Of a stretch of 64,000 nucleotides of DNA, positions 10,172-45,720 are shown piece by piece. Origin of the DNA: a virus (taxonomy: Duplodnaviria > Caudoviricetes); IMG/VR virus record IMGVR_UViG_3300007770_000001; one strand, written 5' to 3'. Both the position numbers and the translations under genes were made by a program. Position 1 is the stretch's first letter. Each line of letters begins with the position of its first letter. The notes below the pieces were generated by a model that made no database searches, was not told where the DNA came from, and saw only the letters and a list, made by a program, of their open reading frames with translations.

Positions 10172-10810
10172 ATGCGTCCTGACCCAAAGAAGGTTGCTGC
10201 TGCTTTCCTCGCGCAGAAGTCCGGTATGTCTCGGACGGCGGGTGAGGTTCGGTTCGTCAAGGATCGTGGGGGTGACAAGTCCGAGTGGGGTTGGAACACC
10301 CCCGGCCCGTCTGAGAGAGATATCTCGGACAACTTCGTGTTCAACGCGGAGAACCTGAAGCCGTTGGCTTTGGTGATGCGGTCGGTCCTGATGGGATTGG
10401 GCCACGCCACTTCGGCGCACACTCGGATGGTGAAGATCAAGAGCCGGAACGTTAGCCCTGATGGGGCTCTCGGAGGCAAGGGGTACATTCAGAAGATCCC
10501 GGACCTGCGGCGCCAGCTCATGAACTGTGTCGAGGTTCTCTCTGCGATTTCCGATACCCTGTACGATGAGATCAAGGCCCCTCACTGGGATCCCTCCGAG
10601 GACAAGATGACTCCACGGGACCGCGACGAGGTTCGTGAGATCGTAGAGGACGCTGAGGAGATCAAGGAAGATCCTGAGGCCTGGGCGGATGAGCAGGAAG
10701 AAGAGCTCGATGAGGAACACGACACCCTCGCTGTCCACAAGCAAGCAAGCCAGAAGGTGAGCTTGCACCGGGTGATCCGGAACTTCCAGAGGAGCACCGA
10801 TGTCGGATAG
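10172..10810 (+). CDS. Hypothetical protein with N-terminal PKKVAAAF motif (candidate head-internal protein)
   Basis: CAGGAG RBS, CTAT element 30 nt upstream; stop overlaps the next start. Confidence 0.7.
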   Translation: MRPDPKKVAAAFLAQKSGMSRTAGEVRFVKDRGGDKSEWGWNTPGPSERDISDNFVFNAENLKPLALVMRSVLMGLGHATSAHTRMVKIKSRNVSPDGALGGKGYIQKIPDLRRQLMNCVEVLSAISDTLYDEIKAPHWDPSEDKMTPRDRDEVREIVEDAEEIKEDPEAWADEQEEELDEEHDTLAVHKQASQKVSLHRVIRNFQRSTDVG

Positions 10811-13208
10811 CACGATCCACCAGCTGGGCAATGCGGAGCTCCCCGCTGACCTGTTCACGGAGACCCTGGCGAACGGCTTTGGGCTCGGTGAGTACCCTGA
10901 CATGCAATACGGAATGGGGTCTCAGTCAGCCGTTGTCCTGCAGGACGGCCCCACGACTGCACCTGCTGTTCCTGACGGTCTGGCGAAGGGGTCCGCAGAG
11001 GATCTCGATCTCCGTTCTCTGATCGCCGAGACCGTCCCCGATCTCGATTGGCTCGACGCCAGCCTCCTGGAGCAGGATCCCGCGCGCCTTCCGAAGAACC
11101 CAACGGACGTGATCCCGGAGCTCGTTGACGCTTGGAGCTCCGACGGCCCTTCTCTCACAGCACAGACTCGAGACCTTTCCCGCGTTCGGTACGAGGAATC
11201 TCTCAAGGAGGGCTCCGGGACTTCCCAGAAGGCTTCCGTCAAGCAGATGCGAGAAGTGGCTTCCAAGGCGATGCGTCGGTCTGTGATGGGTCACGATATC
11301 GCGACCATCATCCGCGAGGCTCAGGAGTGTATGGGGGAAGAGGCGGCCCGGTTGGAGCCTCTCCTCAAGATGGTCCTCGCTGAGCATGGCCTGGCGGGGA
11401 ATGTGTTCATTCGAGCTGCTGCCTATCCCAAGTACGGGTCGGGCCAGTGGGGAGCCCACCTCCGGAGATATGCACGGGACGCCCGGTATGTGGTGGTCTC
11501 TGAGCGGGATCTCAAGAACGCAACCTGGATCCAGAACGGTCGGTGCTCTCTCACCGGCAAGTTCGCCGTCACGAAGGTCCCCTGGGAAGAGGCAGTCACC
11601 CACTACAAGTCTCGGCTGGCTGGCCGCTCTCCTTCTCGCACTGGTCTGCGTTCTGCGTTCCTCCAGAGGGAGGGTCTCTCCAAGAAGGCCAACAGCTGGC
11701 TTCCACACCACACGGCTGCTGCTGATCGGGTCTCCACTGAGGAGGCGTGGAAGGCGTTCGCGTCGTACAAGCCCGAGGTTCCTCAGCTTCGGGATCCGAA
11801 GGCCGTGCGGCTGGCTTCGGACAAGCGGGCGGCAGAGGAGAAGATCAACTCCCTCGTCGCTCAGGGAGTTCTCCCTGAGGTGGACCGGGATCGTATCCTG
11901 GCCTCTGGCGCTTCTCCCTCTGACCAGTTGAAGGCGGCAGCTCAGATCGCTGCTCTCCCCAAGGTCTCTGCGTACCAGGGAGTGCAGAACAAGGCCAACG
12001 AGGTCAATCGAGATCTGTATCTGGCGCGGCTCGAGATGAGCCACCTGGCTGCTCAGGAGCGTGTCTCCCGCCTCCGTGTCGAGGCTTCGCGCCGCTCTCA
12101 GGCAGCCATTCAGGACCTGGTGGATCGAAAGATCCTCAAGGCCTCCGAAGCGAAGGCGATGCTGGAGTCCGGCAAGTCGGTCCACGCAATCCTCCGCGCA
12201 GCAGCCAAGATCTCCCTCATCCGACAGGGTGAGTTCAGCGGCCAGAACAACAACGCAGCTGAGGCGGGAGTCCAGAGGGTTGTCTCCGGAGCAGAGAAGA
12301 ACCAGGCTCGTATCCGCACTGCCCAGACCAACATCGACCGTCGTGTCCGGAGGGAAGCAGCGGAGAGTACCCTCGAGGCCCGCGCCGCCCAGGATCGCGT
12401 CACCCGGCTCAAGGCAGGGTATCGGGAGGTCCGCCGGGCGATCGAGGCTGGCGCCCGTGGTCAGGTCCTCAAGAACATCATCGCCAAGACGTTCCATGGG
12501 AACGATGCCGAGATTGGCCGTCGTATGCTCGCTGGCCTCCTGGAGCGCACAGGAGCCCTGAAGGAGCCCACCAAGGCCAACTATGAAGGGAAGTCCTTCA
12601 AGATCCATCAGGCAGAGGCTCGGAAGGCTCGGTTCTCTGGGACCGAAGCCCGGAAGGTCCTGTCTTGGCTCGGCCGGACCCTCTCTGAGGGCTTCGCAGG
12701 GAAGCCCTTGGATGAGCTCATCCAGCGTCGGTTCACTGCTCGGACACGGGAGGCTCTCAAGAGCGAGATCTTCGTAGCTCGGACCTCCCACGAGGGTGGT
12801 GCAGGGTTCGTCTATGTGGACGCCTCTGCGTATGCAACCCTCAAGGGGGTCAAGGGGTGCGAGACCGGGGCCCTCAAGCACCGGGCGAATCAGATCCCCT
12901 CCGTCCTGGAGATGAGCCGGTGCGCTTCTTGCTCCCTGGTCTCGACTCGGGAGAACGGCGAGCGGGTTTGCTCCCTGTACAACAAGGTCCTGCTCGCCGA
13001 CGCTCGGGGTCCCGAGATGGACCGCATCCGTTCGGCCAACGTCCAGGTAGCCAACATGAGCCGCGCGGAGCAGACCCAGTCTCTGTTCGCCGGTGTCTAC
13101 GATCCAGCGGAGTTCGATCTCCAGAACACCAATCTGGAGGGGATCTCTCCCGGGATGCCTGAGACGGACAAGTTGGCTGAGATCTTCTTCGAGACGCGAC
13201 TGCAGTGA
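10800..13208 (+). CDS. Large helical hypothetical protein (candidate head-internal protein)
   Basis: 802 aa, coupled to both neighbours; Cys pair C(A)SC near the C-terminus. Confidence 0.7.
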   Translation: MSDSTIHQLGNAELPADLFTETLANGFGLGEYPDMQYGMGSQSAVVLQDGPTTAPAVPDGLAKGSAEDLDLRSLIAETVPDLDWLDASLLEQDPARLPKNPTDVIPELVDAWSSDGPSLTAQTRDLSRVRYEESLKEGSGTSQKASVKQMREVASKAMRRSVMGHDIATIIREAQECMGEEAARLEPLLKMVLAEHGLAGNVFIRAAAYPKYGSGQWGAHLRRYARDARYVVVSERDLKNATWIQNGRCSLTGKFAVTKVPWEEAVTHYKSRLAGRSPSRTGLRSAFLQREGLSKKANSWLPHHTAAADRVSTEEAWKAFASYKPEVPQLRDPKAVRLASDKRAAEEKINSLVAQGVLPEVDRDRILASGASPSDQLKAAAQIAALPKVSAYQGVQNKANEVNRDLYLARLEMSHLAAQERVSRLRVEASRRSQAAIQDLVDRKILKASEAKAMLESGKSVHAILRAAAKISLIRQGEFSGQNNNAAEAGVQRVVSGAEKNQARIRTAQTNIDRRVRREAAESTLEARAAQDRVTRLKAGYREVRRAIEAGARGQVLKNIIAKTFHGNDAEIGRRMLAGLLERTGALKEPTKANYEGKSFKIHQAEARKARFSGTEARKVLSWLGRTLSEGFAGKPLDELIQRRFTARTREALKSEIFVARTSHEGGAGFVYVDASAYATLKGVKGCETGALKHRANQIPSVLEMSRCASCSLVSTRENGERVCSLYNKVLLADARGPEMDRIRSANVQVANMSRAEQTQSLFAGVYDPAEFDLQNTNLEGISPGMPETDKLAEIFFETRLQ

Positions 13209-16174
13209 AGCCGAACCCAGCCCGCGTGGCTGTGCGTTGGGCCGTATCCCAGCAGCAAGCAGCCCCGAAGCCCATGGCGCCCGTTGGGAAGCCAGGGGTT
13301 CATGTGGGTCTGTTCTTCCCCGTCCCCGAGGATATCGCTGATCAGTTCCCGGAGAAGGAGCAGGACAAGTCCAACCCCCACGTGACCTTCCTGTATGTGG
13401 GAGAGGTGGAAACCTCTCGGGAACAGGAGCTCGTAGAACTGGTCTCCGACTTCTTCCTGGAGCTGCCGGCTATCCGGGCCTCTCTGGGCCCTATGGACTA
13501 CTTCCTGACGCCAACCCAAAAGGTGGTGTTCAGCTCGGTCCGTTTCTCCCATGACATCTCGAGTATCCGAGACCAGATCCGGGAAGCTCTCCTGAAAGCG
13601 GGCTTCCGTGTCAAAGATGCCTCCCCTATCCGATGGCATCCCCACGTAACCATCGCGTATGTCAGCCCGGAGGAGAACCTCAAGCTGGCGCCGCCCAAGG
13701 GGTCCTGGGATATCGAGACTGTGCGGGTCTGGGGCTTCTCCAAGGAGCACACGATCCTGTTCGGAGGTGCGGGCCGCCGTCCTACCTTCAAGAGCATGTC
13801 CCATCGGGTCGCTGCCAAGTACAAGTCCAAGAAGGATGTCAAGGGTCCCGACGGCAAGACCCACACGATCTACGAGTACTCGGACCAGCACAACGCGAAC
13901 AAGGACAAGGACAAATCCAAGAGGGTCGAGAAGCTCCGCCAGAGCCTCTCGAAGCTCCGGAGCAAGTACCGTAAAGGGCTGTCAGCAGAGGACGCTCGAG
14001 AGCGTCTCACGGCCCTCGCCGTTGCTCTGGTAGACTGCACCTACGAGCGCGTCGGGAATGACGGCTCCGCCAAGGAAGGACACTTCGGTGTCACCGGCTG
14101 GCAGAAGAAGCATGTCACCATCTCTGGGAATACAGCCACCTTCAAGTACACCGGGAAGTCGGGGATCGACCACGAGAAAAAGGTCACCAACTCCAAGGTG
14201 GTCGGGGCTCTCAAGAAGGCACTCGAAGGGAAGAAGCCCGGGGACAAGATCCTTTGCGATGGCGATGAGTGTGTGATCTCAGCCACCCAGGTCAATCAGT
14301 ACCTGTCGGAGTTCGGAGTCACCGCCAAGGATATCCGAGGCCTCCACGCCAACGAGGAGATGAAGAAGAGTCTCTCGGCCATCCGCAAGAAGGGACCCAA
14401 GCTTCCCTCCGACAAGAAGGAGCGGGAGAAACTCCTCAAGGATGAGTTCAAGCAGGCCCTCGAGTCCGCAGCCGAGGCAGTCGGCCACACCACCTCCATT
14501 CTGCGCTCCAGCTATCTGGTTCCGGGTCTGGAGGACAAGTTCATGCAGGACGGAACGGTGATCAACAAGCTGAACAAGGCTGGCCGTACAAAGACGGCTG
14601 CCTTTGACATCCTGCGGCACTGCCCCCACTGTCTGGGGATTGTGTCTGACCTGGCCAAGTTCTGGGATACCTGTACGGACTGTGGCTACGAGGTCAATCT
14701 GGGAGGCTTCTATAATGGGCGTGGTGATGCTCCTCACGGAGGAAAGCCTGTCGAGAGGATGGCCCGCGAAGACGCGTGGCAGCCGATTCCTGAGACGGAT
14801 CCTCGCCTGATCAAGCAGGCCCTGGATACCTTCTCCCAGTACTCCCGAGGTCCAATGATGTGGATCGGGGAGGAAACACGCCTGGCCACACTTGAAGAGC
14901 TCGCCCAGTACCTGGAACGTGTCGGAGCTCCCATCCCTGCCGTTCCCCATACCAAGACTGCTGCGGGGAACCAAGAGGTCATCGAGGCTCCTCACAACTT
15001 CCATCGAGTCAAGGTAGAGCCCCCACGAGCCAAGCGGAAGGTGTACCCGTTCGAGGGCTACATCGACTTCCAGGGCATCCAGATCGATGTAGAGAACAAG
15101 AAGGGGTCCTCTCGCTCCGGGGCGGATCCCGACGGGAACAAGTGGTCTATCAAGATGCACGCCCACTACGGGGAGATCCGTGGGACCGAGGGCACCGACG
15201 GGGATAAGCTTGACGTCTACGTGGGGGAGAACCACGATTCCTCGGTGGTGGTCGTAGTTCACCAACAGGACCCCAGCACTGGCAAGTTCGACGAGGACAA
15301 GGTCCTGTTGGGATTCGACTCTCCTGAGGAGGCCATCGGTCTCTACAAGAAGCAGTACGACAAGCCAGGCTTCTTCAAGGAGGGCGAGTTCCTGACCATG
15401 CCCATTGGCCAGTTCTGGCGCTGGGTCAACGATCGGAAGAACAAGGGGAAGAAGGTGAAGGCTCGGTACTGGAGACCTCTCTCCGATGCTGTCGGGCTCA
15501 AGACTGCCAAGAAGGGCTCCTGGCAGGAGAGGTACTGGAAGACTGCCATTATCCACCTCTGGAACGCAACAGACGGAGAGGGTGATCTCCGGGGGAATCC
15601 CGGTCTTCAGTCGAGCCTGACTCTGTACGAGCGCGCGCTGATACAGGAGCTCTTGATTCATGAGCAGCCCATTCTCCGGACGGGCGAGCACTACCACGTC
15701 CGGGACCACCGACTGGATCCCGAGGCGGTTGGGGAGCTCATCGGCGCAGGATATCTCGAGGAACTGGAGGACGGTTCGGTTGTCGTTTCTCCGATGTACC
15801 ACGCCAAGGCACGCCTGTATGGTGGGGGTCTGACTCTGAAGGAGCAGATCATGGCCTACGAGCTCGGGTACGACCACACCAAGTCTGCTGCGCGTCACGG
15901 TCCTCCGACTCAGGTTGGTCTCTCCTCTGTTCTGAAGCGGAAAGGTCTGGAGCCGGTCGATATCTGGTTCGGACAGGTTCGTCCCCACCGCCGGCCGACG
16001 GTGACCAAGCTCGAGGCTCTGCGCACACGCGCCGGAGATATCGTCTACTTTGCCGGGATGGATGGCAAGGGCGAGCCTGTCGTTGGCCGCACTGAGCGGG
16101 AAGCAAAGGAGCTCGCCAACGAGATCGTTAAGCTCCGCCTTCGCCACCAAACCCCAACGATCCACAGCACCTGA
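13205..16174 (+). CDS. Polyvalent protein: 2H phosphoesterase + DNA topoisomerase IB catalytic core + phage polyvalent inorganic pyrophosphatase-like domain
   Basis: 2H motifs PHVTF and PHVTI. Topo IB pentad ERVGN (R), GKSG (K), KDIRG (R), GHT (H), RSSYL (Y). InPase-like IDVENKKGSSRSG...YGEIRGTEGTDGDKLDVYVG...FDEDKVLLGF. Confidence 0.82.
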   Translation: MKPNPARVAVRWAVSQQQAAPKPMAPVGKPGVHVGLFFPVPEDIADQFPEKEQDKSNPHVTFLYVGEVETSREQELVELVSDFFLELPAIRASLGPMDYFLTPTQKVVFSSVRFSHDISSIRDQIREALLKAGFRVKDASPIRWHPHVTIAYVSPEENLKLAPPKGSWDIETVRVWGFSKEHTILFGGAGRRPTFKSMSHRVAAKYKSKKDVKGPDGKTHTIYEYSDQHNANKDKDKSKRVEKLRQSLSKLRSKYRKGLSAEDARERLTALAVALVDCTYERVGNDGSAKEGHFGVTGWQKKHVTISGNTATFKYTGKSGIDHEKKVTNSKVVGALKKALEGKKPGDKILCDGDECVISATQVNQYLSEFGVTAKDIRGLHANEEMKKSLSAIRKKGPKLPSDKKEREKLLKDEFKQALESAAEAVGHTTSILRSSYLVPGLEDKFMQDGTVINKLNKAGRTKTAAFDILRHCPHCLGIVSDLAKFWDTCTDCGYEVNLGGFYNGRGDAPHGGKPVERMAREDAWQPIPETDPRLIKQALDTFSQYSRGPMMWIGEETRLATLEELAQYLERVGAPIPAVPHTKTAAGNQEVIEAPHNFHRVKVEPPRAKRKVYPFEGYIDFQGIQIDVENKKGSSRSGADPDGNKWSIKMHAHYGEIRGTEGTDGDKLDVYVGENHDSSVVVVVHQQDPSTGKFDEDKVLLGFDSPEEAIGLYKKQYDKPGFFKEGEFLTMPIGQFWRWVNDRKNKGKKVKARYWRPLSDAVGLKTAKKGSWQERYWKTAIIHLWNATDGEGDLRGNPGLQSSLTLYERALIQELLIHEQPILRTGEHYHVRDHRLDPEAVGELIGAGYLEELEDGSVVVSPMYHAKARLYGGGLTLKEQIMAYELGYDHTKSAARHGPPTQVGLSSVLKRKGLEPVDIWFGQVRPHRRPTVTKLEALRTRAGDIVYFAGMDGKGEPVVGRTEREAKELANEIVKLRLRHQTPTIHST

Positions 16175-18027
16175 TGATTGTCTCCCCCGAGCGTGTGGCC
16201 CGTCTGTTCTTGGCGACCAAGACACGTTCGGAGAAGGAAGAGGCTGAGGCGGAGCGGCTGATCAGGCCCTCTCCGAAGAAGAAGCCTCCTCGTCGGGATC
16301 TGGAACGAGGTCGGGTCAACGATAGCGAGGACGACCCGGACGAGAAGCAGGACAAGAAGGACCGGTCCCACAACTACAAGGACTCAAGCTTCGACCTGGT
16401 AGCTTGGTGGTTCAAGAACGCTCGGGACACCAGTACGGTCAGGATGCGCAAGGTGGATACCGGGCGCGTCGTCGACGTCTCTCCGGACACTGTCTCTGAG
16501 AACCCAGGCGCGTACGAGGAAGTCACTGGGGACGATGCAACAGATACGGACGACGCTGATCCTGATGCAACCGAGGACACCCCTTCCGACACTCCCAGTT
16601 CTGATCCAAAAGGGGATGCCCCTCCCAAGCCTGACCCCTCCTCTCTCCCAGGGCCTACGGACCTCCCGGACAAGGACGCGTACGAGAAGTTCCGCTCCGA
16701 TGCCATGGCTCGCTACACAGCCTTGGGGATAGCTGAAGACGAGGTTACTGAGATCTTGGACATGGTCTCGAACCAAGGGGACGCTGAGGAATCAGTGGTC
16801 CTGTTGGATGAGCTCGCGGATACGGCTGCTGCGGAAAAGGCGGACCGAGAGAAGGCCGAGAAGGCCGAGGCCGAAGCTCTCCAGAAGGAGCAGACCGAGG
16901 CTGAAGAGGCTCGGAAGAAGGAGGAGCGGGACAAGCTCACCAAGGATCTCACTCAGGGTCTGCCGAGGGACCAGGAGTCTGCTCTTGAGAGGTCCCTCGG
17001 GAAGCTCTCTCCCGAGCAGTTCCAGGCGTTCTCGGAAACTCTGCAGAACCGGGTGTCTGACCTCAACGCGAGTCGTCCGGACATCAAAGAGTTCATGGAG
17101 GACCTCTCCGCGCGGAAGAAGGATCTCCGGGAAAGCACTGACCCGGCCCGGTTGGGAGAAGCCCTCGCGGCCGTGACCTACTTCAACACGGTGGTAGACA
17201 ACCCTGCTGTGGATCTGGATAACCCTCTTCCGGAGAAGGGAGGGGACGAGCTGGAAGGGGATGCTCTGACTGAGGCCCGGAAGAAGTCGGTCGAGAGGTC
17301 CTCACGTGCAGTAGAGAAGTATCGTGCGATGTCCTCCGAAGATCGGAAACGTCACCTCAAGCGGCTGGACCAAGAGCTCCTGGATCTCCCAGACGGATCG
17401 CCCCGCCGAGTAGAGCTTGAGGCGATTGAGAAGGGGTTGGGAATCGCTGCTGTCCTCGAAGAGGGAGACTCGGTTCGAGGAGCCGGCTCTGCAGTAGCCG
17501 GAGTCATCCGTGCTGCCGATACAGCTGGGGATCTTGACAAGATCCTATCTCTCTCTGTGTTGGAGAGCACCGATGCCCTGGGTTCGGATGACCAGCATAT
17601 CATCCGTGGTGTCTACAACAACCTGGGCTCTATGGATTTCGTAGATGTGGTCGCCAAGGACCACCCCGCCCGTCCCCTCGCTGAACTCCTTGCGGACCCG
17701 GCGGGGAGCAAGAACATGTCCCGGGCGGACAGGGCGTTCATGAAAGAACTCCTGGTGGATGCCCTAGTCGCGGACACTGCCTTCCTGGATCCCCTCGTTT
17801 CAGGGGAGAGCGAAGGCCTCACGGTCAAGGAACACCGCAAGAAGTCTCTGAAGAAGCGGAAGAAGTTCACCCCATCGACCAAGATCCCAACGGACGTCAA
17901 GGGCGCTCGTGGTTGGTTCGAAGAGTTCCTCGAGAACCTCTCCGCACCGTTCCGAAAGAAGTCCTCCTCCCACATTCCTTGGGATTTCACCCCCTGGAAC
18001 CCCGAAACCATCACCTTCCAGACCTAA
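16174..18027 (+). CDS. Acidic helical hypothetical protein with N-terminal PERVARLF motif
   Basis: 617 aa, TGATG coupling to the polyvalent gene. Confidence 0.7.
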   Translation: MIVSPERVARLFLATKTRSEKEEAEAERLIRPSPKKKPPRRDLERGRVNDSEDDPDEKQDKKDRSHNYKDSSFDLVAWWFKNARDTSTVRMRKVDTGRVVDVSPDTVSENPGAYEEVTGDDATDTDDADPDATEDTPSDTPSSDPKGDAPPKPDPSSLPGPTDLPDKDAYEKFRSDAMARYTALGIAEDEVTEILDMVSNQGDAEESVVLLDELADTAAAEKADREKAEKAEAEALQKEQTEAEEARKKEERDKLTKDLTQGLPRDQESALERSLGKLSPEQFQAFSETLQNRVSDLNASRPDIKEFMEDLSARKKDLRESTDPARLGEALAAVTYFNTVVDNPAVDLDNPLPEKGGDELEGDALTEARKKSVERSSRAVEKYRAMSSEDRKRHLKRLDQELLDLPDGSPRRVELEAIEKGLGIAAVLEEGDSVRGAGSAVAGVIRAADTAGDLDKILSLSVLESTDALGSDDQHIIRGVYNNLGSMDFVDVVAKDHPARPLAELLADPAGSKNMSRADRAFMKELLVDALVADTAFLDPLVSGESEGLTVKEHRKKSLKKRKKFTPSTKIPTDVKGARGWFEEFLENLSAPFRKKSSSHIPWDFTPWNPETITFQT

Positions 18028-18126: not shown

Positions 18127-19065
18127 ATGACCAACAAGCTGACCCGGCTCGGTGCTCGGAACCTGACTTCGGCGATGGACAACGTCGCCGATACGATCCA
18201 GACCCACTTCGCTCTGCTGGGCATCGACCCGAAGATCGCCGGGGACTATGCCCTGCGGACCGATCTTCTCTCCGATGTCATCGAGCGGCGTGCCTCTGAG
18301 AACTTCCCCAAGAACGCGGACATGGATCTCTCCGTCATCGGAGAGACCACCACCGCTTCCTCTGTCCCCGGCTACGCAGGGTTCACCGCTCAGATCCGTG
18401 AGCTGGAGGGCCTCGCGACCCAGGCTGCTGAGATCTCCGCCCAGGTGGAGGAGGCCGTCGGCCCTCTCCTGCGGGAAGGCTCGGTTCTGGACGCCGGCCA
18501 GAAGAAGATCCACAAGGCCATCGTCGACGGGTACAAGCAGCACCTGGGGCAGATCGGAGACATCATCATCGAGCGCAAGACAGCTCTGGTGGGCGCTCGT
18601 GCCCGCCTCAAGGTCACCCAGGTCCGCCGGACTCCCAACCAGGTTCAGGGGGAGCTCCTCACGGCCGTTACTGAGCGCTACGGCGCTGAGGTCGCTGACT
18701 TCATCGCCACCACCCAGTCGGCCCTCCGGGATGCCGAGAAGAACCTGCGGATCGCCTTCAAGGGCTTCGAGCTCGAGCAGCGTGCTCTCACCGCCTCCGG
18801 CAAGACGGCGGGCCTCGCCGATCTTCTGGCCCGGTTCCAGGAGACCCTGTCCAAGACCTGGCAGCGTATCGTTCAGGTGGTCCAGAACGCCGTCGGTCTG
18901 GTCTCCGGGGCGGCCAAGCGCGTCACCACGGCCCATGACGACTTCATGGAGGCCTTCTCCGCAGCACAGTCCAAGGCTGCCTCTGATGACGAGGATGCTG
19001 AGGACACCGACAAGGAAGCCTCCCAGACCGACAAGGTCGCGGGCCCCTTCAACCTCTTTGCGTAG
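18127..19065 (+). CDS. Coiled-coil hypothetical protein (candidate head core protein)
   Basis: ATG 18127 after GGAG, strong C-ending codon bias; shares DTDKEAS with the scaffold. Confidence 0.65.
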   Translation: MTNKLTRLGARNLTSAMDNVADTIQTHFALLGIDPKIAGDYALRTDLLSDVIERRASENFPKNADMDLSVIGETTTASSVPGYAGFTAQIRELEGLATQAAEISAQVEEAVGPLLREGSVLDAGQKKIHKAIVDGYKQHLGQIGDIIIERKTALVGARARLKVTQVRRTPNQVQGELLTAVTERYGAEVADFIATTQSALRDAEKNLRIAFKGFELEQRALTASGKTAGLADLLARFQETLSKTWQRIVQVVQNAVGLVSGAAKRVTTAHDDFMEAFSAAQSKAASDDEDAEDTDKEASQTDKVAGPFNLFA

Positions 19066-19079
19066 GTCGATCTGATCGG

Positions 19080-19559
19080 ATGACTCGCTCCGCTTCCAAC
19101 TTCGTCGACTTCCAGTCTCGGGCTCGTGAGTTCTCCGAAGGGGACCTCGCTGCCCCCTTCGGATATTCCGTGGACCAGGCAGGACGGGTCACCAATGTGT
19201 GGCCTGCCGTCGGGATGGTGGATGTGGAGTTCGCGACGGGGAACCGTCGTCTTCCGGCAGAGGATCTCCAGAAGTTCACTCCTGATGGAGATCCTGACCC
19301 CCCGAAGACCAACTCGGTCACCGGACCGAGTTCTACCAAGGTGGCACTCTACTGGGCTCAGCGGGATCGCAAGTATCGGATGTCTCGTCCTGAGATCATC
19401 GATGGTTGTCCCTGCTGCCCTCGCTGCCCGGACAAGCCCAAGCTCAGCCGCGCCATCTACAAAAGGTTGGACGGCGCCAGCGAGCGGCTCCTCGGTTGCA
19501 AGTCCTGTCTCTTCCTGATCAAAAGTTCTGATATCGTCAATATGGGGGGTGGGGGATGA
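19080..19559 (+). CDS. Hypothetical protein with C-terminal Zn ribbon (CPRC...CKSC); 3' end appears recoded
   Basis: Two CxxC pairs; the last codons use AAA/TCT/GAT/AAT, unlike the rest of the gene. Confidence 0.7.
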   Translation: MTRSASNFVDFQSRAREFSEGDLAAPFGYSVDQAGRVTNVWPAVGMVDVEFATGNRRLPAEDLQKFTPDGDPDPPKTNSVTGPSSTKVALYWAQRDRKYRMSRPEIIDGCPCCPRCPDKPKLSRAIYKRLDGASERLLGCKSCLFLIKSSDIVNMGGGG

Positions 19560-20389
19560 CTCCGGGCATTTATTCCATCCTCAACACCCAGAATGGGAAG
19601 AGGTACGTCGGGAGATCCAAGAATATGGAGGCCCGGTGGCGAGGCCATGAACGTTCGCTGGTGGCGGGGTCTCATTGCAACAACCATCTCCAGAGGTCCT
19701 GGAACCTTTACGGATCCTCCACCTTTCAGTTTGAGATTCTTGAGGTAGTCCCGGATGCGATGACGCGGGCCCACAGGGAAGCGTTCTGGTGTGGCCACTT
19801 CGATACCCACAACCGAGACAAGGGCTACAATATCGGGGATGTCCGGACAGATGAAGGGTCGGTTTACGTTTCAGACGAAGTTCGTTTGAAACGTTCTGCA
19901 GCGCGGCTTGGGAAGACTATGTCGGCAGAGACGCGAAGGAAGATTTCGATCGCCAACAAGGGGCGAAAGAGGACATCTGAGGTTTGCGAGAGGATTCGGC
20001 AAGCACGTACCGGGACCAAGGCTTCCGAAGAAACCCGGAAGAAGATGTCCGTGTCTCGTAGGAAATGGAACCACAGCCCGGAGACAGTGGCGAAGATAGC
20101 TGACTCCAACCGAGGACAGAAGAGATCCCCTGCCATTTGCCAGGCTATGTCAGAAGCCCGAAAGGGGAGGCCTGGACGCCCTCACACCGCTGAGACCAAA
20201 GCCAAGATCTCAGAGAAACTCCAGGGGCAGAAGCGCACGCCGGAGCAGTGTGCGCGGATTTCCGTCTCGAAGCAGGGGCCTCGGAAACCGCATTCTGAGG
20301 AAACCCGGAACAAGATAGCGGCTTCTCTCAGAGCCTATTGGGCTCGGCGGAAGAGTTCCGACATCGTCAACAACCCAAGCTGCGCATAG
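19556..20389 (+). CDS. GIY-YIG homing endonuclease with NUMOD3 repeats
   Basis: GIYSILNTQNGKRYVGRS...RWRGH...FEILE...GYN; multiple NUMOD3-like units (MSAETRRKIS, SEETRKKMS, HSPETVAKIA, HTAETKAKIS, HSEETRNKIA). Confidence 0.92.
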   Translation: MTPGIYSILNTQNGKRYVGRSKNMEARWRGHERSLVAGSHCNNHLQRSWNLYGSSTFQFEILEVVPDAMTRAHREAFWCGHFDTHNRDKGYNIGDVRTDEGSVYVSDEVRLKRSAARLGKTMSAETRRKISIANKGRKRTSEVCERIRQARTGTKASEETRKKMSVSRRKWNHSPETVAKIADSNRGQKRSPAICQAMSEARKGRPGRPHTAETKAKISEKLQGQKRTPEQCARISVSKQGPRKPHSEETRNKIAASLRAYWARRKSSDIVNNPSCA

Positions 20390-20390
20390 A

Positions 20391-21848
20391 ATGGCTCACT
20401 CCAAGAAAGCATATGCGATGCTCACCCATCCCCGGATCACCGGGCGTGGTTGGGGCAAAATGCGTCGGAAGGCGACGTCCGGGGCTTCCTCGGCCAACCT
20501 GTCGGATCAGGCTCGTCTGATCCTCGGCGGGCCTCTGGATCCCGACAAGTACCTCTTCTCGCACTGCACCATCGTGGCGTCGGTGGATATCGATCCCGTC
20601 CCGGGTGTCCGTATGGGCACTGTCAAGGTAGGGAACTCGACCATTGACCGTCGCTATGGCGACTACTACATCAGGCCCACCAGTTCCCAGTATGTGAACA
20701 ACAACGGGGACTCTTGGTCTCGCCCAGTGCTGCTGGCCAGCTATCCGACCTTCGTCGGGGGCCACAACTTCCTCGAGCATGTCCAGGTTGCCTCCAAGTC
20801 CAAGGGCCGGATCATCGATGCGGTCGCTCGGGATGTTGGGGACTCGGTCTACATCGACATCCTGGTCGCGACCAATCGGAAGCATGCTTCCCTGATCTCG
20901 GACATCAAGTCCGGACGTCTCAACACCCTCTCGATGGGCTGTACCACCGACTTCACGATCTGCACCAAGTGCGGACACGTGGCGGTGGACGAGACCGACC
21001 TCTGCGACCACGTCAAGGTTGCCAAGCTCGACACCTTCCTCGACGAGCGGAACGAGCGTCGGATCATCGCCGAGCTCTGCGGCCACATCTCTCACAACGA
21101 GACGGGGGGTGTCAACTTCATCGAAGCCAGCTGGGTTGGGATCCCGGCTTTCACTGGCGCGGTGATGCGAAACATCCTGCAGATCGCCAACCTCGATGAG
21201 CGCGAGTCCGAGATTCGCCGGATCCTCGCCAGTCAAGGTCCCTCGTGGTCGGAGGCTGCCATGATGAAGGCAGCCAAGTTCGACCCCCAAAGGTTCCTGG
21301 TTGGACAAGGGGACGAGGACAACGAGGATCAAGAGCCAGAGCCAACCCCGGAGCCCGAGACCAAGGACACTCTCCAGAAGCTCGAAGATGACCTGGTTGA
21401 CCGAGTCAAGGACCGCGTGCAGGACCGCCTCCGCTCCGAGATGCGTTCCGATGAGGGTGACAAGACCCTTGGGGACTCCGACTGGCCCAATGACACTCTG
21501 AACAGGGAAGCCCGGACCCGGGTAGCCTCCAACACCCGCCGTCGCTACAAGATCGCGGTGGAAACGGCTCTCCGGCATGCGACCTCTCAGATCGCTCTCG
21601 TCGACTCGGTCGCTCGGATCAACATCGCCCACGATATCCGGATCCCCGTCTCCATCTATCGCGCCGCTCTCGAGGCTGGCTCCTCTTCTCGCTACGCTGG
21701 AACTCAGCAGTACGTGAATCGGATGCAGCACCTCCTGGGTCGCCGCATCAGTCCCGCCGAATTCCGGGTTGTTGTCCGGGTCGGCTCCCTGCTCTCCCAG
21801 TGGGAGCAATTCAACAACCCGCAGTCATCCTCCCCGAGGAGTTCCTAA
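20391..21848 (+). CDS. Prohead maturation protease
   Basis: NFLEH (His), IDILVA (Asp), LSMGC...CTKCGH (Ser plus Zn knuckle), FIEASWV; directly upstream of scaffold and capsid. Confidence 0.78.
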   Translation: MAHSKKAYAMLTHPRITGRGWGKMRRKATSGASSANLSDQARLILGGPLDPDKYLFSHCTIVASVDIDPVPGVRMGTVKVGNSTIDRRYGDYYIRPTSSQYVNNNGDSWSRPVLLASYPTFVGGHNFLEHVQVASKSKGRIIDAVARDVGDSVYIDILVATNRKHASLISDIKSGRLNTLSMGCTTDFTICTKCGHVAVDETDLCDHVKVAKLDTFLDERNERRIIAELCGHISHNETGGVNFIEASWVGIPAFTGAVMRNILQIANLDERESEIRRILASQGPSWSEAAMMKAAKFDPQRFLVGQGDEDNEDQEPEPTPEPETKDTLQKLEDDLVDRVKDRVQDRLRSEMRSDEGDKTLGDSDWPNDTLNREARTRVASNTRRRYKIAVETALRHATSQIALVDSVARINIAHDIRIPVSIYRAALEAGSSSRYAGTQQYVNRMQHLLGRRISPAEFRVVVRVGSLLSQWEQFNNPQSSSPRSS

Positions 21849-23020
21849 TGGCACGTCAGCGCCTCTCATGGATCGAGGAAGCTCGTCGAGCTTCCGCCCA
21901 CCCCGCAACCCCCGACGAGGGTCCGGCCTCTCCCGCAGGCAACGGTGAGGACCCCACCGCCGACGCCTACGAGAACGGCGACACCTCCTCGTGGGCCTCT
22001 GACCCGCACCCGCACCCCGGCCCCTACCCGGACAGCGCCCACCCCGCCACGCCCGACGAGGGCTCGGACCACCCGGCCGGCAAGTCCGCCTCCGACGAGA
22101 TCTCTCCCGAGACGAACCGTCGCGCCTCCCAGTGCGTCCGCATCGCGACCGCCATGCTCGGCGAGCCCGACAGCCCCGCCAAGGTCGCCGCCATCGAGGC
22201 GCAGGCCATCGAGCTGATGCACCTCCCCGACGCTTCCATCACCGCCAGCCTCAAGCGGCTCGGTCTGGACGGCGACGGTGAGGACGACACCGACAAGGAA
22301 GCCTCTTCCAAGATCTCCAAGAACACCGACCGGATCGCCCGGCTCGAGCGCGTTCTGATCCGCCTCGCCGACGACGACCTGGACGAGGAGGCCGCCACCA
22401 AGAAGGCTTCGGCTGAGCTGGAGACCCGCGTGGCGCGGCTCGAGCGCATCCTCGTCAAGCTGGCTGAGGAAGACGAGGATGACGACGGCGACCGGATCGC
22501 CCGGCTCGAGCGCGTTCTGATCCGCCTCGCCGAGGAGGAGGAGGAAGAGGACCCCGCCCCGAAGGCTGCCGCCACGGACAAGAAGGCCGACGACCTGCTC
22601 CTCGAGGAGATGCTCCGCGAAGAGGGGATGCTGGACAAGAAGGCCGACGACCTGCTCCTCGAGGAGATGCTCCGCGAAGAGGGGATGCTGGACGAGCCCT
22701 GCGGCATGGGTGAGCCCTCCATGGACGAGCCCTCCGGCGACACCGAGCTCGAGATCGATCTCGCTGAGGAGGATCCCATGACCATCCTCGCCGACGACGA
22801 CCTGGACGAGGAGGCCGCCACCGTGCTCGCCTCCCTGTACAGCGAGACCCCCGGCGCGAACCGCGAGGCCGCCACCGAGCCCGAGCGCCGGCCGCAGCCC
22901 AAGAAGGCGAGCACCGGTGCCTCCAGCCTCGGCAACGTCCGGACGGCGTCCAACGACTCCGACGTGGCTCAGCTCGAGAACCTGTGGAAGTCGGCTCCCG
23001 ACGTCTCCGCGCTCATCTGA
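21848..23020 (+). CDS. Capsid scaffolding protein
   Basis: TAATG coupling at 21846-21850; very acidic with coiled-coil repeats; amphipathic C-terminal tail DVAQLENLWKSAPDVSALI; lies between protease and capsid genes. Confidence 0.75.
   Translation: MARQRLSWIEEARRASAHPATPDEGPASPAGNGEDPTADAYENGDTSSWASDPHPHPGPYPDSAHPATPDEGSDHPAGKSASDEISPETNRRASQCVRIATAMLGEPDSPAKVAAIEAQAIELMHLPDASITASLKRLGLDGDGEDDTDKEASSKISKNTDRIARLERVLIRLADDDLDEEAATKKASAELETRVARLERILVKLAEEDEDDDGDRIARLERVLIRLAEEEEEEDPAPKAAATDKKADDLLLEEMLREEGMLDKKADDLLLEEMLREEGMLDEPCGMGEPSMDEPSGDTELEIDLAEEDPMTILADDDLDEEAATVLASLYSETPGANREAATEPERRPQPKKASTGASSLGNVRTASNDSDVAQLENLWKSAPDVSALI
22328..22533 (+). repeat. 44-bp direct repeat (DRIARLERVLIRLA) at 22328-22371 and 22490-22533
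   Basis: Identical nucleotide copies; a diverged third unit (TRVARLERILVKLA) lies between them. Confidence 0.85.
22576..22693 (+). repeat. 57-bp tandem duplication (DKKADDLLLEEMLREEGML x2)
   Basis: Identical units starting at 22576 and 22633. Confidence 0.9.
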
Positions 23021-23904: not shown

Positions 23905-24777
23905 ATGCCCGCAACCAACGCAGTCAAGGCTCGCCTCATCAGCGAGTTCATCGGCACCCAGGCTGGCCGTCACAAGCTCGCCGCGTCGATGACCCAGCCC
24001 CTCCGGCTCCGCCGGGACTACATGGCCGTCGGCCGGAAGACCTTCCTCGTGGAAGAGCTCCCGGATGGCGCGCTGCCCATCTACGACAAGGATCCGGACG
24101 TCACCGCGTACCTGGTCGGTGAGGAAGGCGAGAACATCGTCGCCGTCACCAAGCCCCGGCGCGTGTCCTTCCCGCTGTTCGAGATCGCCTCGAACCCGGA
24201 GATCCCGCTGACGCAGATCAAGGAGCGCCGCTTCGACCTCATCGAGCGCGCCCAGGACCTGGCCCGTGCCCAGATCCAGGCCGCCGAGGACGAGCGCGTC
24301 TTCGCGATCATGGACTCGATCGCCACCAACGGCTTCGACTCCATCGCCGGTGGTGAGAACCCCGACATCCCCGTCGTCGCCCCGATCTCCGGCGCTGTCC
24401 TCGCGGACGCCTTCGCCGCGGTCGAGCAGCACGACCTCCGGGTGGCCCGGGTGTTCATGAACGCCGTCGACTACGCGGACATCCGCAAGTTCGGCCGGGA
24501 CATCCTCGACGTCGAGACCCAGCGCGACCTCATCCAGACCGGCCTCATGGGTCGCCTCTGGGGTGCCAGCGTCATCGTCAGCCGCCTCGTGCCGGCCGGA
24601 TTCGTCTACATCTGCTGCGAGCCCGAGAACTTCGGTCGGATTCCGGTCCGTACCGAGCTCACGGTCCTCAGCGCCGACGACCCGCGCGCCCGCACCATTG
24701 GCTTCAGCGTTTTCGAAAACTTGGGCATCGGGGCCTTCAACCCCAAGGGCCTCTGCCGCCTGACGATCGCACGGTAG
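23905..24777 (+). CDS. Major capsid protein (HK97 fold)
   Basis: 290 aa, GAGGAGG RBS, strongest codon bias, follows protease and scaffold; HK97-like QIQAAEDERVF and ARVFMNAVDYADI segments. Confidence 0.85.
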   Translation: MPATNAVKARLISEFIGTQAGRHKLAASMTQPLRLRRDYMAVGRKTFLVEELPDGALPIYDKDPDVTAYLVGEEGENIVAVTKPRRVSFPLFEIASNPEIPLTQIKERRFDLIERAQDLARAQIQAAEDERVFAIMDSIATNGFDSIAGGENPDIPVVAPISGAVLADAFAAVEQHDLRVARVFMNAVDYADIRKFGRDILDVETQRDLIQTGLMGRLWGASVIVSRLVPAGFVYICCEPENFGRIPVRTELTVLSADDPRARTIGFSVFENLGIGAFNPKGLCRLTIAR

Positions 24778-26532: not shown

Positions 26533-26598
26533 GTAGTACTCTACCGAGAAGGGAAGCGGTTGCTGGCCTATTCAGGAGCCCTCCCAGAAGGGGTCATC

Positions 26599-29500
26599 GT
26601 GGCTGCGAGAATCCAAAGTCTCCGGAATGGTGGAAGTGCCGTAGATGAAGCCAGTCGGGATGACTTGGTCGCTACGGACGTTGTAGTTGTGTCCTCTCTG
26701 GACTCAGCCACGACCTACAACTGGACTCTCGTGTTCGTTCCAGAGGGCTCTGCCGCAACGTTCTCGGGAACCACCACTGCGGTAAGTCCCGGCTCGTTCA
26801 CGGTTGACATCCCCGGCCCGTACCTCGTGCGACTTGTCGTAGATTCGGGACTCCCAACTGAGGACACACAGTACGTCCGGCTCCGAGCACTCACCGAAGA
26901 GTTGGGCCTCACACTGGTCGCAGCTGGCGAGCGTCGTGACGGCACCGGCACCATCCCGGTAGATGTGGATCCTGAGGGTTGGGCGAACGAGCAGAACGCC
27001 AATCTGAAGGCTCTTGAGACTGCGGTCACCCTCGCCTCGAGCCCTGGAGTCCCTGAGTTCGTGTTCCGTCCCGGAGGCACCCAGACAGGGAACATCTTCA
27101 CGGACTTCGCTGACCTGTACGCTGCGCTGACCGCAGCGGAGGGGAAGAAGCGTCTCGTCTTCGACAACTCCATCTCCTCGCCTTGCACGATCCCTGCGGG
27201 GGCCTACGATTTCGCGGATACGACCTGGGTGGGCGTGGGCTTCGGCGTCCTCCTTCCGGCTTTTGAGGCCCAGCCGCGCGTCGAGTTCGCCAACGGGGTG
27301 GCGATCACGAACCTGACTCGGATCCAGCACCTTCTGATTGCGATGACTGCGGGAGTGTCTACTCCAATCACCTTCTCGGGGGTGGTACACATCCTGCAGA
27401 TCCGGCTGAGCAAGCTCCTGTCGGAGGCTGGCGCCAACCCGCTGTTCGTGTTCTCGGGTGCCGGAGCGCACCTGATGGATCTCACCCAGACGGTTCTGGG
27501 CGGGAGTAGTCAGGAGGTCATCGACCTACAAGGTACGGTGAGCCTGGGATTCAATCTTCAGGTCCGAAGCCTCATCCAGACTGACGCGATCTCCGGGGCG
27601 GCGGGGACGTCTCTGTCTAAGACACTGGACGCGTCATCCAGTGTCGCCACCTTGTCGGCTTTCTCCGGAACCGACGCGGGCGACACCTTCATGGACGAGG
27701 CCGAACGGGTTGGCTTCGACGACTCAGGTCTCCAGCACATCTCCGCAGACGATGTTCAGAAAGCGATCGAGGACATCGATGTCGCCATCGATGACCCGGC
27801 GGGTCTGATCACCGTAGCAACTGCAGGTGCAGACCACACCACCATCGAAGCGGCGCTGGCCGAAGCTGCGGGAGTGGCGTCCCCCAGCAATCGTATCCTG
27901 GTCGAGATCTACCCTGGCGACTACTCAGAGAACAACCCGCTCACGATCCCCGCCTACGTCAGTGTCAACTGTCCGGGCCGACACGCGGTCACTCGGCTCA
28001 TTTGCCAGAACTCGGGAGCGGGGCAGCACGGCTTGGTCCTGACCAACGACACCGATGTCGTTGGTATTCAGATCCAGGGAGCTTCCGGATCGGGTGCAGC
28101 GGGATTCCACTTTCCCGCCGCAGCGGCGGATATCGAGCTCCAGGACTGCAGGATTCAGGACTGCGACATCGGTTGGCTGAGCGAGGCTTCCGCGAACAGT
28201 CCGGGCATCAGCGTCAGGACCCCGTTTATCACTGCAGGGACGACTTCCAGCGCCTTCAAGTGCTCTGCAGGCGGCTTGATGAACGTGGAGGGGGCTCTGG
28301 TTCTGGCTGCCGCCACTGTAGGCAAGGTGTTCCACAGCGATGGGGCGAACTCTACCCTCCGAGCTTCGGGCTGTCGAACCAATGGGGACCTGACGACCCA
28401 CGCCTGCTACGTCGAGAACACCGGCGAAATGCAGCTCTTCGCGAACTACCACAATGGTGTGGCAACGGGTGTTGAGATCACCGCAACGGGGGGGACCCTG
28501 GAGTCTTCGGGCTGCACCTTCATCACAACCGGGAGCAGCATCGTACTGGCCGATACGGCGCTGGCTTCCCTGACTGTTCGGGGCGTGTCGCTGGACAGCT
28601 CCACTTTTAGTCTCGGGGCTGCCGCTACCTTCGCAGGGAGCTTCACGGACACGGGGTCCGTATTCCCTGGCTTCAACGCTATCGAGGAGCTCTGGGCCGG
28701 CGCCACGACCATCGAGCGCGTCCCTCTCGCCACCTACACCCGCGAGACTGCGGCGACTGCTTGGGTCGAGGGCGGGTTGGTTACCATCAACTCTGGATTC
28801 ACCCTGGACGTGGCGGCGGGGAAAGGGTTCGTCAACACGGGGACTGGAGTTGTCTACGTAGTATGGAGCGGGCAGCAGGTCATCGCTTCGGCGGATAGCG
28901 ACTTCTACGTCTATGTGGATTCAGCGGGGACTGCTTCCCTGGCTGGTACCACCCCGGACCTCGAGACCAACGTCCTTCTCGCGGCAGGGCGTACCGATGA
29001 CTCTGTCGTTGCCTTCCTGTCGCGTAACATCGTCCCCTCTCAGTTCCTCCGTTTGCGGCGTCATGAGTGGGTGGCGACAGCTGTGGGGTCTGTTTGGATC
29101 ACCGGGCTGGCCGTCACAGAGTACTCAGGACCCAGTCTGCAGTTCCAGGTAGGGGCGGGCAGGTTCTACCAAGGGGATGTCGAGTACACAGCTTCTGCTT
29201 CCGCCACTCCCTGCGTGTTCAACTACTGGTATCGGGACGGGGCGACTTGGGATGTCACGGTCGCCGCCACTGCTCTGGACGCTACCAACTACGATCCCGC
29301 CGGGTCCGGGCTCTCTCCGATCACTGCAGGTCAGTGGGTCAAGTGCGCGGTCTACGTCAATATCAACGAAGGCACGACCTATTGGCATGTCGTGTACGCG
29401 CAGGCGGAGTACGCCTCTCAAGTGGCGGCTGAAGGGGCTTCTCTGGCGGTCCCTCCGGAGATCTTCAACGCCAACGCTCTTCCTCTGGCAGCTTTCGTCT

Positions 29501-43778: not shown

Positions 43779-44414
43779 ATGAAAATCCTCAAGGAAAGGT
43801 TCCGGAGCTTCTCCGACCAGGTTCGGATGCTCCTGGGTCTGGTCTACGAAGATAGCTTCCCCACGCCCAAGAAGGGGGAGGTCTTCATCCGGGTCGAGGA
43901 CGCCGACACCGGCGAGCTCATCGAAGAGCGTCACATCAAGAATGTGATCACCCTCGATGCAGGCCTCTTGGCCTCTACGTTGATGCTTGCGCCGACCTCT
44001 CGGAACGGCATCAACATGTTGGCCGTAGGGACCGGCGCCACTGGAGCCGTCCTGTCTCCGGACGCTCCGGACCCCAAGCAGAGGAAGCTCAACGCGGAGA
44101 TCGCTCGGAAGACGTTTTCCTCGACTACCTATCGTGACGCCAGCGGGAACGCGGTTTCGATCCGGACCGACATCCTCGACATGACCACGACCTTCGAAGC
44201 GGGAGAGGCGGTTGGTCCGCTCAACGAGATGGGTCTCATGTCCACCATCTCGGACAACACGGGTGTCCAGAACCTGAATCCCGACACGTACCCGACTCGG
44301 GACGTCACGGTGGATGTGGATGACTACGACATCCTCGTGAACTATCTGACGTTTGGCGTGATTTCTATCCCGGCGACCGCCAGATGGAGCCTTACCTGGA
44401 GAATAACCTTCTGA
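43779..44414 (+). CDS. Tail collar/baseplate-associated protein; 3' end recoded
   Basis: LAVGTG...LNAEIARK...TTTFEAGEAVGPLNEMGL...TWRITF resembles tail-collar fibre N-terminal-like proteins; CTAT element 31 nt upstream. Confidence 0.6.
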   Translation: MKILKERFRSFSDQVRMLLGLVYEDSFPTPKKGEVFIRVEDADTGELIEERHIKNVITLDAGLLASTLMLAPTSRNGINMLAVGTGATGAVLSPDAPDPKQRKLNAEIARKTFSSTTYRDASGNAVSIRTDILDMTTTFEAGEAVGPLNEMGLMSTISDNTGVQNLNPDTYPTRDVTVDVDDYDILVNYLTFGVISIPATARWSLTWRITF

Positions 44415-45640: not shown

Positions 45641-45720
45641 TCTTGATGGAGTCTGACTTGGCGGATCACCTTCTAACAGGCGTGTCCCGCCGGTAAAGTC
45701 TCCCGTTGGCGGGAGACCCT

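Follow-up and report, generated by a model that had tools for sequence, protein, structure and literature searches.

In the usual view, a homing endonuclease must reside in an intron, an intein, or an intergenic gap if its host gene is to be spared, and conserved gene ends are the kind of site that they target. Among the closest described systems, the mORFs of fungal mitochondria, found in atp6 of Allomyces macrogynus and in atp6, atp9, cox2, and nad3 of Glomus sp. (Beaudet et al. 2013, PMC3630166, citing Paquin et al. 1994), insert together with a foreign C-terminal coding segment, which strands the native C*-terminus of the gene downstream (PMC3630166). A comparable exchange is known for the WHO elements at FBA1 in Torulaspora and Lachancea yeasts (Coughlan et al. 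2020, eLife, PMC7282813), where the 3' end of FBA1 is replaced by a resistant version and the old 3' end, now downstream, provides the right-hand homology when the element homes again (PMC7282813). Here, we describe a free-standing GIY-YIG endonuclease gene, and the gene end that it adjoins, in a 64,000-nt stretch of viral DNA (Duplodnaviria; Caudoviricetes; IMG/VR record IMGVR_UViG_3300007770_000001). This stretch, referred to below as the window, belongs to a marine jumbo phage, uncultured and ~339 kb in size.

A gene end coded on both sides of the endonuclease

The locus consists of a full-length gene (the target, or host, gene; 19080-19559), the endonuclease open reading frame (ORF; 19556-20389), and, at the end of that ORF, a fragment (20351-20389) that repeats the 3' end of the target gene. 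The peptide KSSDIVN is coded at 19521-19541 (AAAAGTTCTGATATCGTCAAT) and again at 20351-20371 (AAGAGTTCCGACATCGTCAAC), in each case at the C-terminal end of the ORF and in its reading frame. The two copies are identical at 17 of 21 nt and have the rare codon AGT in common; all four differences are synonymous third-position transitions (in the K, S, D, and N codons), and there is no similarity on either flank beyond the 21 nt. Behind the upstream copy lie MGGGG and a TGA, the latter overlapping the ATG of the endonuclease (19556) as ATGA, and the downstream copy, in the endonuclease frame, is followed by NPSCA and TAG (20387-20389), one base, and the ATG of a prohead protease-like gene (20391). 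An earlier reading of these letters, made with no database searches (the sequence-only reading), had reported both KSSDIVN sites and the four codons that differ at third positions, and its positions are exact to the base.

We regard it as probable, on the basis of these features and by analogy with mORFs and WHO elements, that the locus is an intron-less homing cassette. A foreign and probably cleavage-resistant 3' end would have replaced that of the target gene on arrival of the endonuclease, and the native tail would have been stranded downstream, where it is read in frame. All 14 contigs that encode exactly this protease, drawn from several independent assemblies, have the identical layout, and thus it is not an assembly artefact. 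A pattern of four synonymous differences with none at the 14 other positions has, by our own estimate from the sequence, a P of ~0.006 to 0.012 if one copy drifted freely. In a chance control built from 75 loci of GIY-YIG relatives by pairing unrelated 5' and 3' flanks, only 1 of 736 shuffled pairs had an exact shared peptide of at least 7 amino acids (aa) between the 5' flank of the GIY-YIG gene and its 3' end or flank.

Endonuclease-free relatives of the target gene

The target protein has 53 homologs (E ≤ 0.001) on jumbo-phage-like contigs, of which the closest is 58% identical; its 90%-identity protein cluster has a single member, and no Pfam or PHROG family was matched. An AlphaFold model (pLDDT 78) consists of an SH3/KOW-like barrel and then a zinc ribbon; residues 148 to 154 close its ordered part, the final residues being disordered, and a Foldseek comparison of the model with the PDB returned only generic SH3/KOW/PWWP barrels (E ≥ 0.03). 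In the family alignment, the conserved core ends in C..C.FLIK..DI.N, with D151 invariant and I152 conserved in at least 90%, and the tails that follow the core vary from 0 to ~265 residues. Because both the alignment and the model place it there, the duplicated segment is the final stretch of the target gene that is both conserved and structured.

Synteny was examined at 76 distinct viral loci and three metagenome loci, the viral ones being 34 to 59% identical (tblastn best segment; most 34 to 56%). Wherever both genes are present, the homolog of the target gene directly abuts the homolog of the protease gene, with a stop-to-start spacing that ranges from a 1-nt overlap to 17 nt, and none of these loci has an endonuclease at this junction. 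Since all 76 abut without an insert, the endonuclease is best read as an insertion, and the junction of stop, 1 nt, and ATG after NPSCA as ancestral in type. The sequence-only reading had proposed that the 1-nt spacing to the protease gene was kept, which agrees with the range seen in these endonuclease-free relatives. At one locus (L178; a 613-nt contig, positions 74-612), the endonuclease-free homolog ends in DILNMGGA* (asterisks denote stops), coded by AATATGGGCGGTGCCTGA, and the start of the protease gene overlaps the stop as TGATG. Another relative (P0018) has a tail, NPTSA..., with a weak likeness to NNPSCA.

Five further homologs (L027, L038, L059, L062, and L072) carry extra C-terminal domains of 80 to 265 residues after the ...FLIK..DI.. 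core, and these always stop right at the start of the protease gene. This end of the target gene is a hotspot for additions. Among cultured phage records, megablast of the stretch found no match, and tblastn against phage records found one distant uncultured 485-kb phage.

Which copy is native

The spelling of the two copies was compared with a codon reference of 11,596 codons from 17 confident genes. The upstream copy uses AAA (0.08 of Lys codons), TCT (0.21), GAT (0.41), and AAT (0.19), and the downstream copy uses AAG (0.92), TCC (0.37), GAC (0.59), and AAC (0.81), which gives a likelihood ratio of ~124 for the downstream copy as the native-style one (156, multiplied by hand, with a first, cruder reference set). 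These fractions bear out the earlier description of the A/T-ending codons of the upstream copy as atypical. The replacement tail (12 codons) has a codon adaptation index (CAI)-like value of 0.52 and a third-position GC content (GC3) of 0.42, compared to 0.75 and 0.71 for the target gene and 0.62 and 0.66 for the endonuclease gene; its composition thus resembles the endonuclease gene and not the target gene. Codons from 19470 to 19520 are native-like, so that the onset of the atypical tract coincides with that of the duplication. Three rare codons, AAA AGG TTG (19461-19469), are found 50 nt further upstream and might represent a co-conversion patch.

The DNA of the tail in the window (AATATGGGGGGTGGGGGATGA) is clearly related to that of the natural tail of L178, NMGGA*. 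This homology points to an imported allele: NMGGGG* would be a genuine target-gene tail from another lineage, rather than junk or the product of recoding in situ. The sequence-only reading had spoken of recoding, and a re-spelled copy is indeed present, but import of the 3' end of a foreign allele explains it better than active rewriting, because NMGGGG* matches NMGGA* of a relative and the codon usage travels with the endonuclease. Its proposal that the original tail was KSSDIVNNPSCA* agrees with the native-type codons of the downstream copy and with the abutment seen in relatives, although the predicted allele ending in KSSDIVNNP was not found. Neither of two observations that would have told against it was made: no homolog ends in MGGGG, and KSSDIVN is not a conserved C-terminus of GIY-YIG relatives (see below).

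Under the cassette explanation, the mobile unit would comprise the last conserved codons of a foreign allele (KSSDIVN in the other spelling), the tail MGGGG*, and the GIY-YIG/NUMOD3 gene. By analogy with known homing, the endonuclease would cut an endonuclease-free allele at or near the K148 codon (the equivalent of 19520/19521), and the break would be repaired from a cassette-bearing genome, with the left arm pairing within the target gene and the right arm, which starts at the cut, pairing, downstream of the endonuclease, with the native-type fragment and the protease gene. The product would be a chimeric full-length target gene with a replaced end, the endonuclease, and the stranded KSSDIVNNPSCA*. 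The occupied allele is predicted to be immune, as its upstream copy carries four mismatches in a 3' context that is new, and its remnant is without the former 5' context. Using a CNNNG motif to predict where the enzyme cuts, in the manner of I-TevI, was judged too speculative.

The main rival to this explanation reverses the polarity, such that KSSDIVN-MGGGG* is native and the endonuclease entered the junction with a fragment of the target gene of a donor, KSSDIVNNPSCA, at its own 3' end; an endonuclease-free allele would then have a KSSDIVNMGGGG-protease junction. The L178 homolog, with its NMGGA* end and overlapping protease start, indicates that tails of the MGGGG type are genuine ends of this gene, and G-rich, Shine-Dalgarno-like tails 5' of the protease start are common among relatives. 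Nevertheless, we find this order of events unlikely, given that rare codons lie upstream and preferred codons downstream, that the replacement tail matches the endonuclease gene in composition, and that the rare-codon tract at a second cassette (described below) goes past the duplication on the upstream side. Furthermore, it is the gene-proximal copy that is imported in the mORF and WHO systems (PMC3630166, PMC7282813), and the reversed order needs an extra, earlier event in the donor.

A copy that arose in place is a further alternative, and to us a rather improbable one. A perfect 21-bp self-duplication, through staggered or microhomology-mediated repair, would have been followed by synonymous changes in the upstream copy that were either neutral or selected for escape from cleavage or against deletion between the repeats. 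Differences that are all synonymous transitions are expected if the constrained copy alone changed, both copies have the rare AGT codon, and mismatched repeats would stabilize the insert. However, four of the seven third positions have changed, all to rare A/T-ending codons, while the unconstrained remnant is unchanged at the 14 other positions, and the presence of 0 to 1 single-nucleotide polymorphism (SNP) over 8.7 kb among contigs from several studies argues for a young, clonal population. An origin in situ also leaves the different tails (MGGGG and NPSCA) and the likeness to a natural allele unexplained, and it would be at odds with any donor lineage in which the target gene naturally ends in AAAAGTTCTGATATCGTCAATATGGGG....

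The endonuclease

The endonuclease matches Pfam PF01541 (GIY-YIG; 3.2e-9), PF07460 (NUMOD3; 5.8e-16), and a PHROG homing endonuclease family (2e-38). Residues 1 to 96 align to the catalytic domain of I-TevI (PDB 1MK0/1LN0; E = 1.5e-14), and Y6, Y17, R27, H31, H40, E75, and N92 are invariant in the GIY-YIG alignment. NUMOD3 repeats make up the C-terminal region, where xSEETRxKxS units are visible in the alignment. The ORF fills the whole gap between the neighboring genes; its GC3 is 0.66, compared to 0.78 to 0.82 in the neighbors, and its codon adaptation is 0.62, compared to 0.77 to 0.84. Pfam results for the protein included no intein domain. Judged by its sequence, the gene is intact, I-TevI-like, and intron-less. 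No donor of the cassette was identified; the closest relative (P0055) is 35% identical and is found at an unrelated locus, beside a thymidylate kinase gene.

The C-termini of relatives bear on whether KSSDIVN could belong to the GIY-YIG protein itself and resemble the target gene by chance, which we consider very improbable. The closest relative ends in WADKKASDMS, members of the family typically end in W-A-[RK]-[RK]-K-[AG] plus 3 to 15 variable residues (and often in [RK][RK]K[AS]..), and the BLOSUM score of the 7-mer is within the six-frame background. However, DIVN, SSDI, and SDIV are absent from all 119 GIY-YIG relatives, KSSD is present only once, at an internal position (P0093), and an exact 7-mer is as rare in the control as stated above. 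Nor would chance account for a peptide at the end of both ORFs, in frame, with 17 of 21 nt alike including a shared rare codon and with a native-type junction of stop, 1 nt, and ATG behind it.

A self-splicing intron with KSSDIVNNPSCA* as its 3' exon, in which case the gene end would be expressed from the downstream copy, is the least credible explanation, even though I-TevI-type enzymes are classically intron-encoded and splicing from 19520 to 20351 would restore a plausible protein. An Rfam scan of 18900-20900 found no group I or group II family at E ≤ 10, the non-coding sequence (35 nt ahead of the ORF and 0 nt behind it) could not accommodate a ribozyme core, and the upstream ORF is complete, having a conserved end and a stop of its own.

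In-frame capture and proposed translational coupling

The endonuclease ORF reads in frame through the remnant to the stop at 20389, and so the fusion to the old tail and the use of its stop, as put forward in the sequence-only reading, stand. The endonuclease has lost its own end and stop, whichever origin the residues at the junction have. The +1 frame across the remnant is the frame of the protease gene and would give an endonuclease-protease fusion, and the +2 frame runs to 20520, which is 130 nt into the protease gene; only in the observed frame is a stop reached ahead of the protease ATG. A GGAG-like motif lies 6 to 12 nt before the start of most genes in the window, but the protease gene has none. 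The absence of a Shine-Dalgarno-like sequence suggests coupling, and translation of the protease gene probably depends on termination-reinitiation from the ORF that ends one base upstream. The in-frame capture, together with the ATGA overlap, would thus keep a coupling chain that runs from the target gene through the endonuclease to the protease.

Occupied and empty alleles

Searches with exact or degenerate DNA patterns for the predicted empty junction found no match in viral or metagenome contigs. A codon-degenerate pattern for DIVNNPSCA gave four unrelated chance matches, which is a weak negative, as the collection did not return the contigs of this phage itself, and patterns for DIVNMGGGG and for relaxed NMGG tails had no match in viral contigs. 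Every contig with the exact target protein or the exact protease also carries the endonuclease. The stretch is present in six sequencing runs from two studies, and the assembled contigs of four of them contain the occupied form alone and no joints, although assembled contigs cannot exclude rare variants.

Several points weigh against the import of a foreign gene end as we propose it. In the collections searched, neither this phage nor a close sister is represented by an allele free of the endonuclease, and the endonuclease is fixed in every sampled contig, which gives no sign of ongoing homing. The repeat is short (21 nt), and its BLOSUM62 score of 33 (summed by hand) is lower than the 95th percentile of the control (40, six-frame); because the score is within this background, the significance of the repeat comes from its exact identity, position, frame, and DNA relatedness. 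A tail of the NMGG.. type is natural in L178, itself perhaps among the closest relatives, and this equally allows the upstream copy to be native. We infer that NPSCA is the native tail and that the upstream copy is foreign from codon usage over 7 to 12 codons and from analogy, and we likewise infer the cleavage site, the resistance of the occupied allele, and the translational coupling. Finally, the K at the junction, and perhaps part of KSSD, could be native to the endonuclease, and the original junction may have formed by microhomology.

A second cassette and its counterparts in other viral contigs

The sequence-only reading had noted two different nuclease families with the same insert-and-recode strategy in this genome, and a second cassette of the same layout is found around the ORF at 44495-45640. 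The peptide WSLTWRITF ends a 211-aa gene (43779-44414), whose PHROG profile match extends to the last residue, and is coded again beyond the endonuclease-like ORF. The two copies are identical at 21 of 27 nt, and all six differences are synonymous. The likelihood ratio for the remnant as the native-codon copy is ~166, and the rare-codon tract of the functional copy reaches ~20 codons upstream, beyond the duplication.

We also scanned for recurrence at 75 usable IMG/VR loci of GIY-YIG relatives, gathered by their catalytic domain. Exact flank duplications of at least 7 residues were found at 4 of the 75 loci, compared to 1 of the 736 control pairs (Fisher P = 3e-4), and 8 of 75 loci were above the 99th percentile of the BLOSUM control (binomial P = 9e-7). 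Six of these are convincing: five repeat the start of a gene (L106, L126, L132, L146, and L148), and one (L165) is of the 3'-end type, like the locus studied here. At L148 (2450-4196), the GIY-YIG ORF begins in frame with the stranded N-terminus of the downstream gene, the P-loop-like SLRPPIFVxGxARSGTS, a second copy of which is in that gene; this captured gene start mirrors the capture of the tail at our locus. Thus, the general mechanism that the sequence-only reading had claimed for this lineage gains a second cassette but is not special to the lineage, since it recurs in unrelated viral contigs and is known in fungi.

One of these loci, L132 (2277-4342), has its GIY-YIG endonuclease between two chaperonin-like N-termini (NILADNVA.TLGPRGRTVAL) that are alike over 46 aa, and the downstream copy runs on for at least 351 codons.

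Genome context

The positions of the two cassettes and of the adjacent genes are given in Table 1. All genes around the insertion are on the + strand, and the same sequence is present on contigs of 285 to 339 kb from several assemblies. Two proteins without family matches lie between the polyvalent protein and the target gene, and the protease gene is followed by an acidic repeat protein and then by the major capsid protein (23905-24777).

Table 1. Coordinates, in the window, of the two putative cassettes and of neighboring genes
Feature	Coordinates	Strand	Remarks
Polyvalent protein	13205-16174	+	Topoisomerase IB, InPase, and 2',5'-ligase-like domains
Target ("host") gene, 159 aa	19080..19559	+	SH3/KOW-like barrel and C4 zinc ribbon; conserved jumbo-phage head-module gene
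Upstream (functional) KSSDIVN copy	19521..19541	+	Rare codons AAA, TCT, GAT, AAT; putative imported replacement 3' end
New tail MGGGG and TGA	19542..19559	+	G-run directly 5' of endonuclease ATG; stop overlaps ATG (ATGA)
Free-standing GIY-YIG/NUMOD3 homing endonuclease ORF, 277 aa	19556..20389	+	Last 11-12 residues are the putative captured target-gene tail
Downstream KSSDIVN copy	20351..20371	+	Putative stranded native 3' end; in frame at endonuclease C-terminus
Putative native tail NPSCA and native stop TAG	20372..20389	+	1 nt 5' of protease ATG
Prohead protease-like gene, 485 aa	20391..21848	+	phrog_18299 head maturation protease, 6e-13
Functional end WSLTWRITF* of 211-aa gene (second cassette)	44385..44414	+	Gene 43779-44414; rare codons AGA, ATA, CTT
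Second endonuclease-like ORF, 381 aa	44495..45640	+	ROS/MucR zinc finger, NUMOD3 motif, weak resolvase/endonuclease-like C-terminal matches
Stranded remnant WSLTWRITF and TAA (second cassette)	45647..45676	+	Outside any ORF

Other repeats were seen in the window. The acidic protein (21800-23020) has long near-perfect internal repeats (e.g., 22327-22372 and 22489-22534, or 22576-22637 and 22633-22694), and its length is called as 406, 390, or 371 aa among contigs that otherwise do not differ. An exact 20-nt direct repeat, GACACCGACAAGGAAGCCTC (peptide DTDKEA), at 19003-19022 and 22286-22305 is common to the acidic repeat protein and the C-terminal region of the 326-aa protein that precedes the target gene. 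Logan contigs break at this repeat, which could have arisen by recombination or could serve both proteins as a protease-processing or scaffold motif. Near-identical 80-nt segments lie ~1 kb apart, at 34690-34790 and 35731-35830. The adjacent large genes at 26560-30582 and 30609-33863 have several diverged peptide blocks in common (e.g., SPGSFTVD and VRLRALT), which indicates that they are tandem paralogs. The polyvalent region (10800-18027; topoisomerase IB, InPase, and 2',5'-ligase-like) is split among three called ORFs (802, 989, and 617 aa), and in a related 350-kb phage (L010/L011/L012, 1-3647), the topoisomerase IB and InPase domains are on a single ORF of at least 2100 aa.

Comparison with known systems

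The locus studied here, the second cassette, and 6 to 8 of the 75 viral loci suggest that phage endonucleases also carry a spare gene end. As a tentative extension, which we hold to be quite possible, replacement-end cassettes may be a widespread, undescribed third way into phage coding sequences, beside introns and inteins. About 1 in 10 free-standing GIY-YIG genes in viral contigs would then carry a gene end to spare, either 5' or 3', the edge of the remnant would coincide with the cleavage site, and in-frame capture, as seen here and at L148, would be selected, hijacking the translation start or termination-reinitiation signals of the host gene and keeping essential downstream genes expressed. 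If this is true, target sites of uncharacterized phage endonucleases could be read from sequence, because the remnant boundary marks the cut, and natural pairs of cleavable and resistant sites would be available for the study of I-TevI-type specificity. It would also explain the mosaic, fast-evolving ends of conserved phage genes and would warn annotators that short orphan peptides and odd C-terminal extensions near endonuclease genes may be stranded gene ends. In-frame capture beside a protease gene without a Shine-Dalgarno sequence offers a testable case of a selfish element that preserves translational coupling.

To our knowledge, the Seg and Mob genes that have been described are intergenic and leave no duplicated gene end. 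Like the T4-like Seg enzymes and the intron-encoded I-TevI (PDB 1MK0), the endonuclease studied here has an N-terminal GIY-YIG domain with the catalytic residues of I-TevI, together with NUMOD3 repeats, and like the seg genes it sits between phage genes without an intron and would be expected to spread by double-strand-break repair with co-conversion of the flanks. It differs from Seg and Mob in that the insertion is inside the coding end of its target, with the gene probably repaired by the replacement that it carries. Reportedly, the T4 gene 60 bypass/mobA cassette and the "fractured genes" with split inteins are further phage arrangements of this general kind: a free-standing endonuclease lies in a phage coding region, with host function and self-immunity kept. 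Those systems rely on translational bypassing or protein trans-splicing, whereas our locus has a duplicated, re-spelled gene end. We found no published phage endonuclease with a duplicated gene end in the open-access literature, of which our coverage was incomplete.

The WHO elements likewise combine a replacement 3' end with an endonuclease gene, push the old 3' end downstream, and leave the target gene to evolve as a chimera. However, WHO proteins are intein-derived LAGLIDADG/zinc-finger enzymes that act in meiosis, and they form tandem clusters with fragments of hundreds of base pairs, whereas a single GIY-YIG enzyme and a 36-nt remnant are found here. Cleavage and allele specificity have been shown experimentally for WHO, while the phage cassette is known from its sequence alone.

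With mORFs, the locus shares the order of gene core, inserted (here putatively foreign) C-terminal segment, endonuclease ORF, and stranded (here putatively native) C*-terminus, as well as ends that are alike in protein but diverged in DNA and the absence of an intron; relations in frame between the gene end and the mORF also occur. The setting here is a double-stranded DNA jumbo phage, and the duplication spans 7 codons, compared to tens to about a hundred for mORFs. For the Allomyces mORF, the native status of the remnant was proven by comparison with a sister species, whereas in the phage it is deduced. The endonuclease studied here has its own start, which overlaps the stop of the target gene, and reads into the remnant; mORFs show the reverse, being often in phase with the inserted C-terminus upstream. 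From its sequence and by analogy, the locus thus appears to be the phage counterpart of the mORF/WHO replacement-end homing cassettes, unusual in that the native tail has been captured in frame.

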